A stretch of 64,000 nucleotides of DNA from Vicinamibacterales bacterium. Lineage in GTDB: Bacteria; Acidobacteriota; Vicinamibacteria; Vicinamibacterales; UBA2999. Shown here piece by piece: positions 53,791-55,179 of the stretch. The stretch lies in NCBI GenBank assembly GCA_050246635.1, contig JBFWVR010000005.1:370844-434843 (forward strand). Direction: 5' to 3'. A program made the position numbers and the translations under genes. The notes beneath the pieces were generated by a model, which searched no databases, was not told the DNA's origin, and saw nothing but the letters and a program-made list of their open reading frames with translations. Numbering within the stretch: the first letter of the stretch is position 1; each line of letters opens with the position of its first letter.

Positions 53791-55179
53791 CTACTGGAGG
53801 TCTCCGTCCTTGATCTTGTTGAGCAGCGCCTTGTAGCTGATGCCGAGGATGGCGGCGGCTTCCTTGCGGTTCCAGTGCGTCTGCTCGAGGACCTGGCGGA
53901 TGAGTGCGTGCTCGGCTTCGCGGGCCGCGCTGCGCGCGCGTTCGCGCAGCGTGCCCTCGCCACGCGTCGCGGCCTCGCCGGCGGCCGGTGCCGGGGCCGG
54001 CGGGGGGGTGGCGGGCCGCATCGGGCCGAGCTCGCTCACCAGCGACGAGTCGCTGCCGAGCAGGACCGCGCGCCGAATGAGGTTGTCGAGCTCCTGCACG
54101 TTGCCCGGCCACTCGTAGCTCAGGAAGCGGCGCATCGTCTCGGCGCCGATCTCGGTCGGTGGCGTGCCGTACTGCGCCGTGTAGGTGGCGAGGAAGTGCC
54201 GCGTCAGCACCGGGATGTCCTCGCGGCGCTCGCGCAGCGGCGGCAGGCGGAGCGAGATGACGTTGAGCCGGAAGTACAGGTCCTCGCGGAACTGGCCCTC
54301 GGCGACCGCGGTTTCGATGTCGCGGCCCGTGGCCGCGATGATGCGGATGTCCTCGGGCGCCTCGCCGCCCGTGGCCGGCCGCGCGTCGCCGTCCTGCAGC
54401 AGCTCGAGGAGGCGGCCCTGCAGCGCCGGGCTCATGTCGGCGATCTCGTCGAGGAACAACGTCCCGCCGCGCGCCGTCTCGAACGGGCTGCCGGCCTCGG
54501 GACGCATGGCGCCGAAGGCGTTCGGCGCGAACCCGAAGAGATCCGCGCCCGCCATCTCGGCGCTCGACGCCGCGCAGTTCACCGTGACGAACGGGCGATC
54601 CCAGCGCGACGACCCCGCGACGATTTCCCGCGCGACGATCGTCTTGCCCGTGCCGATCTCGCCGAGGATCAGCACGATCGCGTCGGTGGCCGCCGCCCGC
54701 TGGACGAACTCGCGCACGCGGGTGATGGCGGCACTCGTGCCGATGAGCGGCGGCCGGACGGCGTCGCGTGCCGGCTCGCGCACGACGGGCGGGCGATCCG
54801 TGTCGCGCGTGTGGAGCGCCTTGGCGAGCACCCGATCGAGGTCCACCTCGTCGAAAGGCACGCTGATGAAGTCGGAGGCGCCGCGCCTGACGGCCTCGAC
54901 GATGGCGGGCGTGCGCGCCTGGCCCGAGAGCACGATGACGGGCATGTCCGGCGCCATCGAGTGCATGGCGGACACGGCATCGAGGCTGTCCACGGATCCG
55001 CCCACCGGCAACGTGAGGATGACCGCGGCCGGCGGATCGGTGCGGCAGCGCGTCACGGCCTCGCCGGGCCGGTCGAGGCCCGTCGTCTCGTACCCGCGTG
55101 CCGCCAGGCACGCGCAGACGAAGTCGCGCAGTGAAGGGTTGGTGTCGTCCACGATCAGGATGTGCGGCCGTTCAGTCAT
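53791..55179 (-). CDS. atypical sigma54-EBP-like Fis-family regulator (EBP2) with pseudo-receiver and degenerate GAFTGA
   Basis: 462 aa with an ATG start. The REC-like N-terminus keeps DD (ILIVDD). It has T where the phospho-Asp is expected (AVILTLP) and V where the conserved Lys is expected (FISVPF). The AAA+ domain has GEIGTGKT, FLDEI and FREDLYFRLN. The sigma54-contact loop reads FGFAPNAFGAM instead of GAFTGA. The HTH is HWNRKEAAAILGISYKALLNKI. Confidence 0.85.
   Translation of the reverse strand: MTERPHILIVDDTNPSLRDFVCACLAARGYETTGLDRPGEAVTRCRTDPPAAVILTLPVGGSVDSLDAVSAMHSMAPDMPVIVLSGQARTPAIVEAVRRGASDFISVPFDEVDLDRVLAKALHTRDTDRPPVVREPARDAVRPPLIGTSAAITRVREFVQRAAATDAIVLILGEIGTGKTIVAREIVAGSSRWDRPFVTVNCAASSAEMAGADLFGFAPNAFGAMRPEAGSPFETARGGTLFLDEIADMSPALQGRLLELLQDGDARPATGGEAPEDIRIIAATGRDIETAVAEGQFREDLYFRLNVISLRLPPLRERREDIPVLTRHFLATYTAQYGTPPTEIGAETMRRFLSYEWPGNVQELDNLIRRAVLLGSDSSLVSELGPMRPATPPPAPAPAAGEAATRGEGTLRERARSAAREAEHALIRQVLEQTHWNRKEAAAILGISYKALLNKIKDGDLQ

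Follow-up and report, generated by a model that had tools for sequence, protein, structure and literature searches.

An enhancer-binding protein predicted to be blind to sigma-54 heads a sigma-54-promoted exopolysaccharide operon in Vicinamibacterales

Why should an operon with a sigma-54 promoter begin with the gene for a bacterial enhancer-binding protein (bEBP) that seems unable to engage sigma-54 itself? The question is posed by a 64,000-nucleotide stretch of DNA from a Vicinamibacterales bacterium (contig JBFWVR010000005.1 of assembly GCA_050246635.1, positions 370,844 to 434,843; referred to below as the window, with coordinates counted from its first letter), whose other genes have their nearest relatives in the Vicinamibacterales (~64% identity). 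The regulator, EBP2, is encoded on the minus strand at 53791..55179 and is a 462-amino-acid (aa) protein composed of a pseudo-receiver, an AAA+ domain without the GAFTGA motif, and a Fis-type helix-turn-helix (HTH). Its gene is the first of a minus-strand exopolysaccharide (EPS) cluster of ~45 kb, and a paralogue that retains GAFTGA, EBP1, lies at the tail of the same cluster (5326..6822, minus strand, ATG at 6822).

A sequence-only reading of the window, which compared the two proteins by eye, had proposed that EBP2 should not be phosphorylated and should not remodel the sigma-54 holoenzyme, that it resembles the Vibrio regulator VpsR, and that the sigma-54 promoter of its own gene points to a cascade from EBP1 to EBP2 or to mixed, poisoned hexamers. 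We revisited these proposals by comparing EBP2 with its relatives, with related loci, and with known systems. Judged from these comparisons, EBP2 is very probably a sigma-54-blind and phosphorylation-blind regulator that is itself the output of a sigma-54 cascade.

Motif substitutions in EBP2 and across its clade

EBP2 matches the Pfam families Response_reg (aa 7-116), Sigma54_activat (PF00158; aa 145-310; 161.8 bits, cut-off 20.2), AAA_lid_14, and HTH_8 (aa 420-457; 42.2 bits, cut-off 22), and no NCBIfam equivalog reached its cut-off: the AtoC, NtrC, NtrX, and PrsR models each gave about half of the required score. An AlphaFold2 model (mean pLDDT confidence score 77.7) predicts intact receiver and AAA+ folds, with low confidence in the inter-domain linker and in the L1 loop (pLDDT <50 at residues 207-229). 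G+C content by codon position is coding-like (0.93 at third positions, GC3, in a window of 72% G+C). The unusual residues described below are not assembly errors, because the loop and receiver codons showed 0 differences in independent Logan contigs from two landfill-metagenome runs; matching of contigs at 85% likeness was swamped by cross-matches from other EBP genes and was useful for sequence confirmation only.

A full-length BLASTP alignment of the two paralogues (41% identity) places ELFGFERGAFTGA of EBP1 gaplessly opposite DLFGFAPNAFGAM of EBP2 (54505..54543, minus strand), and GAFTGA therefore corresponds to N220-A-F-G-A-M225 in the L1 loop of EBP2. The Thr and both Gly residues of the motif are replaced, while its Ala-Phe is kept, and HMMER alignments to NtrX, NtrC1, NifA, and ZraR put the same EBP2 residues at this position. 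Alignments also locate two substitutions in the receiver on the same strand: Thr56 stands at the position of the phospho-acceptor Asp (AVILTLP, 55006..55026) and Val107 at that of the conserved Lys (FISVPF, 54853..54870), with the acidic pair D11-D12 and S85 present. The substitutions noticed by eye are thus confirmed by alignment to other EBPs, as is the retention of the three AAA+ motifs to which we turn now.

All of these lie on the minus strand: Walker A, GEIGTGKT (aa 173-180, 54640..54663), with its Lys at K179; Walker B, FLDEI (aa 242-246, 54442..54456), with D244-E245 intact; and FREDLYFRLN (aa 297-306, 54262..54291), with both arginine fingers, R298 and R304, which are invariant in a multiple alignment. 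The residue after the Walker A Lys is Thr, compared to the Glu typical of bEBPs, and the resulting GTGKT is a signature of the whole clade of relatives described below. Sensor II of EBP2 reads GNVQEL (54088..54105, minus strand), with Q362 in place of the Arg found in GNVRE of all other sequences shown; this Gln is confined to EBP2, and the rest of the clade has Arg. The ATN motif reads ATG. At the C-terminus, the HTH_8 helices WNRKEAAAILGISYKALLNKIKD (53806..53874, minus strand) are nearly identical to the LGISYKALLYKIKE of canonical paralogues.

To place these changes, we compared the best 120 database matches (EBP2 included) together with EBP1, a set that comprises 28 members of a GAFTGA-less clade (metagenomic protein clusters) and 93 GAFTGA-bearing relatives. 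Every one of the 28 clade members lacks the GAFTGA Thr, the acceptor Asp (replaced by Ser, Arg, or Thr), and the receiver Lys (replaced by Ala or Val), whereas the other 92 matches and EBP1 have the Asp, the Lys, and an invariant GAFTGA. The central Phe is kept in EBP2 and in most members, and the loop variants of the clade include LFGGGL, LLAAAR, and ALSDRV. In a neighbor-joining tree (calculated with no bootstrap support), the GAFTGA-less group is monophyletic and EBP2 is a basal member of it.

Constraint on the clade is selective. Mean pairwise identity over L1 and L2 is 0.69 and 0.57, respectively, within the 28-member clade, compared to 0.96 and 0.90 among the 93 GAFTGA-bearing relatives. 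No such gap separates the two groups at Walker A, the arginine fingers, the lid, and the HTH, where conservation is as strong in one as in the other. A loss limited to sigma-54 coupling would be expected to leave this pattern. As far as residue conservation can tell, the clade has been freed selectively at the surfaces that couple to sigma-54 and has maintained those that bind nucleotide, form ring contacts, and bind DNA. No fewer than 28 clusters, ranging from 47 to 75% identity, have an intact open reading frame (ORF), and the linker residue R142 and the post-Walker-A residue R184 are invariant among them.

The clade is a narrow one. Only two outstanding clusters came out of a profile search against 1.84 billion representatives at 50% identity. 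A degenerate DNA pattern for the clade signature GTGKT-x-VAREIV, validated on the window and on three related loci (L001-L003), had 0 matches in 185,579 GTDB species genomes and found only 3 short contigs in metagenomes. A locus search of GTDB with generic peptides returned canonical relatives only, the best of which is 47% identical and belongs to the Vicinamibacterales. Near the family, five further 50%-identity representatives (P0121, P0124, P0139, P0144, and P0234) have altered L1 motifs as well, reading ELGNAG (with LDG at Walker B), GAFTRI, EPFVNP, GAFSAA, and GGFPWA; loss or alteration of GAFTGA may have occurred repeatedly around this EPS-associated family.

The consequences of such changes have been studied in other bEBPs. 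More than 97% of EBPs have the GAFTGA Thr, on which activation depends but assembly and ATPase activity do not (PMC3105312), and single changes of the Phe or the Thr mostly abolish activity (PMC3162934). Given this established mutational knowledge, EBP2 has most likely lost both sigma-54 activation and phosphorylation, and the comparison of L1 and L2 across the clade strengthens the earlier proposal to that effect.

Sigma-54 promoters and a second paralogue in the EPS cluster

EBP2 does stand at the head of the EPS operon. The second gene encodes a polysaccharide export protein (53051..53782, minus strand; 143.6 bits against TIGR03027, below the cut-off of 180), and an ATG further upstream, 8 nucleotides (nt) past the EBP2 stop codon, is a possible start for it. 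In all seven clade members whose surroundings were examined, the regulator gene lies 4-28 bp upstream of an operon of the order Poly_export, a 400-aa protein, Wzz, kinase, and Bac_transf.

The operon is preceded by a perfect -24/-12 element, TGGCAC-N5-TTGC (TGGCACCGCCATTGC, 55255..55269, minus strand), 76 nt upstream of the EBP2 ATG. Such an element stands before the regulator gene in 6/6 loci for which DNA is available, that is, in the window and, at 56-90 nt from the EBP2-type gene, in L001, L002, L089, L090, and L092. The promoter that had seemed paradoxical in front of this gene is therefore real and conserved.

Four other near-consensus sites occur in the window. One diverges from the EBP2 promoter and precedes a small ORF (CGGCACGCCGCTTGC, 55528..55542, plus strand), with an equivalent, CGGCA[CT]-N5-TTGCTC, in 4/5 related loci; the others, all on the minus strand, lie 70 nt upstream of a CBM6/beta-helix protein gene (TGGCACTCCACTTGC, 25291..25305), 46 nt upstream of a GT4 gene (TGGCATCTGCTTTGC, 14178..14192; equivalent at 4123 of locus L173), and 42 nt upstream of the EBP1 ATG at 6822 (TGGCATCGTGCTTGC, 6864..6878; equivalent at 9943-9957 of L173). 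The total of 5 matches to TGGCAC-N5-TTGC with at most one mismatch is no excess over the 3.7 that chance would give. All 5, however, are intergenic, correctly oriented, and <100 nt from a start codon, where 0.10 such sites would be expected given that promoter-eligible positions make up 2.7% of the window. Judged by its promoters, the EPS cluster as a whole resembles a sigma-54 regulon. A sixth, weaker -24/-12 site (27159-27173, plus strand) lies 199 nt upstream of a plus-strand CBM6/CBM35/EEP gene, and a weaker -24/-12-like element (TGGCATGCCGCGTGC, 7118-7132) lies 22 nt upstream of a REC-PAS-GGDEF gene.

Midway between the two divergent sigma-54 promoters is a conserved block of ~40 bp, ACGATAGC-N14-GGAAGGTCACTTCC (55384..55420, minus strand), whose copy in the window contains a perfect inverted repeat, GGAAGGTCACTTCC. 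The block is a candidate shared enhancer (upstream activating sequence) for the two promoters. A single enhancer motif shared by the whole regulon is unsupported, as the block is not repeated at the other promoters. A consensus scan for sigma-70 promoters and terminators around EBP2 found none, a result that carries no information at 72% G+C.

At the other end of the cluster, the acidic Asp-Asp is replaced by Cys-Cys in the receiver of EBP1, and the closest relatives of EBP1 (P0271-P0273, P0317, P0319, P0324, P0328, and the protein encoded at 9975-11486 of L173) keep GAFTGA, with the acceptor Asp changed to Ala and the Lys to Arg. The L173 gene occupies the same cluster tail, after a run of AsnS, GT4, AsnS, GT4, and UDPG dehydrogenase genes. 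It is preceded by a sigma-54 promoter of its own, and the leading GT4 gene of the run has a further sigma-54 element in front of it, as in the window. EBP1-type genes thus stand behind their own sigma-54 promoters, which implies autoregulation or an activator further upstream. The recognition helices of the two types are close (SYKTLLAKIR in EBP1-type proteins, SYKALLNKIK in EBP2). Judging by their motifs, the cluster looks to be bracketed by two paralogues, neither apparently phosphorylatable, of which the tail one alone can contact sigma-54. A gene for a REC-PAS-GGDEF diguanylate cyclase (7154-8491, plus strand) is divergent from EBP1.

The origin of the EBP2-type proteins is suggested by the canonical counterparts that occupy the head position in two Vicinamibacterales genomes (e.g., P0047 and P0064; ~45% identical to EBP2). 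These proteins, which are uncharacterized and annotated as sigma-54-dependent regulators, share with EBP2 the REC-AAA+-HTH_8 architecture, the operon position, the upstream sigma-54 promoter, and a nearly identical HTH. They keep the acceptor Asp, the Lys, GAFTGA, GKE at Walker A, and, upstream, a HisKA kinase gene and another canonical EBP gene, all of which the EBP2 clade has lost. With a canonical protein at the same position, EBP2-type proteins would be positional descendants of a normal activator, and on these comparisons the ancestral head-of-operon state is canonical. In L004, one of the canonical loci, the gene for the head EBP is followed by that for a small protein that faintly matches GGDEF.

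Candidate roles for EBP2 and comparison with known systems

Because the GAFTGA Thr is needed for activation, EBP2 is not expected to open its own promoter, and an activator that bears GAFTGA must do so. We propose that the promoter of the EBP2 operon would be opened by a different protein, for which the EBP1-type paralogue, GAFTGA-positive and conserved at the cluster tail, is the best candidate. EBP2, once made, would bind the same kind of enhancer, co-assemble with the activator, or both. It would then act as a natural counterpart of the GAFTGA "positive-control" mutants of NtrC and PspF, artificial proteins in which the defective subunit assembles, hydrolyzes ATP, and blocks activation; by occupying the enhancer or poisoning mixed rings, it would put a feedback brake on EPS transcription. 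NtrC mutants altered in the GAFTGA region that still bind DNA were reportedly described by North et al. in 1996 as "repressor forms". A related precedent is the HrpR/HrpS hetero-hexamer, in which changing the Thr to Ala in either partner kills activity (PMC3105312).

Antagonism is the most economical account, because EBP2 keeps a nearly identical HTH and the residues of the ring and would be co-transcribed with the operon. We accordingly favor, if only tentatively, a role for EBP2 as a positive-control-mutant paralogue that brakes an EBP1-type activator by competition or poisoning. Of the earlier reading, it is the cascade and the poisoned hexamers that the new comparisons favor, the cascade through the EBP1-type paralogues conserved at the cluster tail. 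Its evolutionary form is more speculative still: in one lineage of Vicinamibacteria-like Acidobacteriota, the head activator may have been duplicated and the roles split, with EBP1 at the tail keeping GAFTGA and EBP2 at the head becoming a co-transcribed, hard-wired anti-activator.

Several observations weigh against a brake of this kind. At only 41% identity, EBP1 and EBP2 are less convincing as partners in mixed rings. The occurrence of an EBP1-type and an EBP2-type protein in one genome is seen in the window only; co-occurrence in other lineages is deduced from contigs that are separate and have a single sample (3300041965) in common, and the EBP2 sequence itself was found in landfill-metagenome DNA runs only. 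At the window's other sigma-54 promoters we found neither GGAAG-N4-CTTCC nor ACGATAGC. The base rate, finally, favors a different mode of action, because all of the characterized GAFTGA-less EBPs (TyrR, PhhR, HupR, the NtrC proteins of R. capsulatus and Caulobacter, NtrX, and VpsR) act at sigma-70 promoters (PMC6158489; bioRxiv 10.1101/2023.06.06.543975).

By analogy with these proteins, EBP2 could be a sigma-70-type regulator that is the output of a sigma-54 cascade and is perhaps controlled by a ligand (cyclic di-GMP, c-di-GMP; AAA+ domain), activating or repressing sigma-70 promoters inside or outside the cluster. We regard this, the main rival, as possible but less likely than a brake. No target can be named: the recognizable promoters of the cluster are all of the sigma-54 type, and the consensus scan near EBP2 was empty, weak as such a scan is at this G+C content. 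Among solved structures, the best match to EBP2 in both sequence (E 1.1e-64) and fold is NtrX of Brucella abortus (PDB 5m7n/5m7o/5m7p), which has the same three-domain architecture, also lacks GAFTGA, and is reported to be a repressor at a sigma-70 promoter. However, the NtrX loop is shortened, whereas that of EBP2 is full-length and substituted; NtrX keeps the receiver Asp and Lys, and its place is in the ntrYX nitrogen/redox system of Alphaproteobacteria. Against the NtrX model NF051870, EBP2 reaches 278.7 bits, below the cut-off of 600.

The resemblance to VpsR of Vibrio cholerae, proposed earlier, is one of theme. VpsR too is an atypical EBP without GAFTGA at exopolysaccharide genes, and its activity depends on c-di-GMP (PMC6158489). 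Its Walker B is degenerate (ND), it shows no ATPase activity, and the promoters that it targets lack -24/-12 elements (PMC6158489); it retains the conserved aspartyl phosphorylation site (bioRxiv 10.1101/2023.06.06.543975). EBP2, in contrast, keeps the DE of Walker B, has lost the acceptor Asp, and is associated with -24/-12 elements at its own operon and at four cluster sites. A specific kinship is rejected, as VpsR ranks behind NtrX, NtrC1/4, ZraR, LuxO, and FleQ by sequence (VpsR structure 7v2b, E 1.3e-46, compared to 1.1e-64 for NtrX and 6e-59 for ZraR) and twelfth by Foldseek. The likeness is only an analogy.

With respect to c-di-GMP, R142 and R184, invariant in the clade, correspond to arginines with which FleQ of Pseudomonas aeruginosa binds the nucleotide. 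In ordinary bEBPs, the FleQ arginines take part in binding ATP as well (PMC10723142); since they are generic ATP-site residues, the presence of R142 and R184 says nothing on c-di-GMP binding by EBP2. The REC-PAS-GGDEF gene that adjoins EBP1 keeps the idea alive at the level of the system. FleQ offers a parallel of another kind, in that it controls EPS genes and can repress without sigma-54. It differs from EBP2 in keeping GAFTGA, in activating sigma-54 flagellar promoters, and in being controlled by FleN and c-di-GMP. The receiver-like domain of FleQ is not phosphorylated.

An obligate partnership, in which EBP2 and EBP1 form a productive hetero-oligomer in the style of HrpR/HrpS or FleQ/FleT, is unlikely in our estimate. 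In such a complex, DNA binding, ATPase subunits, or a pseudo-receiver interface would come from EBP2 and the sigma-54 loops from EBP1; the two conserved paralogues that bracket one cluster, their non-phosphorylatable receivers as possible heterodimerization modules, and the ATPase motifs conserved in the clade would all fit. HrpR and HrpS of Pseudomonas syringae are a precedent for two paralogous EBPs at one promoter, but both carry a functional motif and co-activate, and loss of the GAFTGA Thr in either abolishes activity. The Gln in sensor II of EBP2 and the modest identity of the two paralogues argue in the same direction. It is more improbable still that EBP2 activates sigma-54 through a non-canonical L1. 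The sigma-54 promoters at its operon and neighbors, the Ala-Phe kept in NAFGAM, and the central Phe of most clade members could be read in this way, yet the Thr, present in nearly all EBPs and required for activation, is gone from the entire clade, L2 is relaxed too, and a conserved contact surface is hard to reconcile with a loop that varies so freely.

That EBP2 is a remnant of the ancestral head activator, decaying and without function, is scarcely credible. This reading would account for the loss of several catalytic and regulatory residues and for the extra sensor II change in EBP2, but not for an ORF that stays intact across divergent clusters, the high conservation of Walker A, arginine fingers, lid, and HTH, the coding-like GC3, or the fixed operon position. 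A pseudogene is rejected because the conservation is clade-wide.

PrsR (TIGR02915), an NtrC-family regulator associated with XrtA/PEP-CTERM EPS loci, is comparable to EBP2 in its genomic context. As a sigma-54-dependent response regulator it is expected to be canonical; EBP2 and EBP1 score 267.9 and 346.5 bits against its model, respectively, below the cut-off of 502.6, and no PrsK kinase gene is adjacent. Compared to the known atypical bEBPs, EBP2 is new, on its motifs and setting, in combining both losses in a conserved clade, inside a sigma-54 operon, and beside a competent paralogue. Our literature search found no described natural, conserved GAFTGA-less paralogue inside a sigma-54 operon and no paper that joins GAFTGA loss, a pseudo-receiver, and PEP-CTERM-type loci.

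Gene content of the EPS cluster and implications

The remainder of the EPS cluster, putatively of the XrtA/PEP-CTERM type, occupies 8470..53024 on the minus strand, with one gene (27372-29738) on the plus strand. Its products include an outer-membrane candidate, a chain-length determinant, a Tyr-kinase-like protein, a TIGR03013 priming transferase, flippases, and an ATPase, as well as glycosyltransferases (stp type among them), Asn-synthase-like amidotransferases, sugar dehydrogenases, and an O-antigen-ligase-like protein. The TIGR03013 glycosyltransferase scores above its cut-off (483.9 compared to 393.35), while the export protein, chain-length determinant, kinase, ATPase, stp1, and amidotransferase have their best matches in XrtA-type families, below the cut-offs. 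No protein of the window, which covers part of a 468-kb contig, matched the exosortase families.

The cluster also contains genes for very large, probably secreted proteins and a heparinase II/III-like lyase (34429-37893, 22117-25221, 20009-22129, 25536-27050, and 16182-18680 on the minus strand; 27372-29738 on the plus strand). The large proteins combine a PLD-like domain with Ig/fn3 repeats, CBM6/CBM35 with a beta-helix, or CBM6/CBM35 with an endonuclease/exonuclease/phosphatase domain. Their domain content suggests that polymer-modifying or -degrading enzymes may be co-regulated with synthesis.

The small ORF that diverges from EBP2 (55642..56001, plus strand) encodes a 119-aa protein whose N-terminus is signal-like and whose tail, VPDTVWLLATGLALLGLAAEVRRRGRR, resembles PEP-CTERM by eye. 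Its counterparts in related loci are genes of 90-110 aa at the same position, all on the minus strand (L001 9314-9610, L002 9411-9704, L089 5396-5668, L090 5418-5747, and L092 5424-5702). Such an ORF of 90-120 aa stands beside every EBP2-type gene, with a hydrophobic N-terminus and a tail of the form [VS][PS]D[TPSA], hydrophobic helix, Arg-Arg. The NCBIfam models of PEP-CTERM sorting signals gave no significant match to these ORFs, which could encode a sorting-signal variant not yet described or a small protein anchored in the membrane. The following ~550 bp up to a chemoreceptor gene (56002-56556) hold no convincing ORF and no Rfam match; related loci have an HTH_25 and PEGA-domain gene on that side that is absent from the window. 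An Rfam scan of the window matched a single tRNA (62198-62270, minus strand) and found no riboswitch or small RNA in the 1.4-kb region upstream of EBP2.

Previously, GAFTGA-less EBPs were known only as isolated cases that had moved to sigma-70 promoters. The EBP2 clade, with its motif losses fixed and its operon position conserved, is a clean natural system for studying what is left for an AAA+ activator to do after its contact with sigma-54 is lost. If EBP2 does act as proposed, it would be, as far as we could find in the literature, the first natural "positive-control-mutant" bEBP that brakes sigma-54 promoters. The annotation of such proteins as sigma-54-dependent response regulators misfits the clade, whose members, to judge from their residues, would be neither sigma-54 activators nor phospho-acceptors. 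In the abundant but uncultured Acidobacteriota of soil and landfill, the output of EPS and biofilm may be under the control of EBP2-type proteins.

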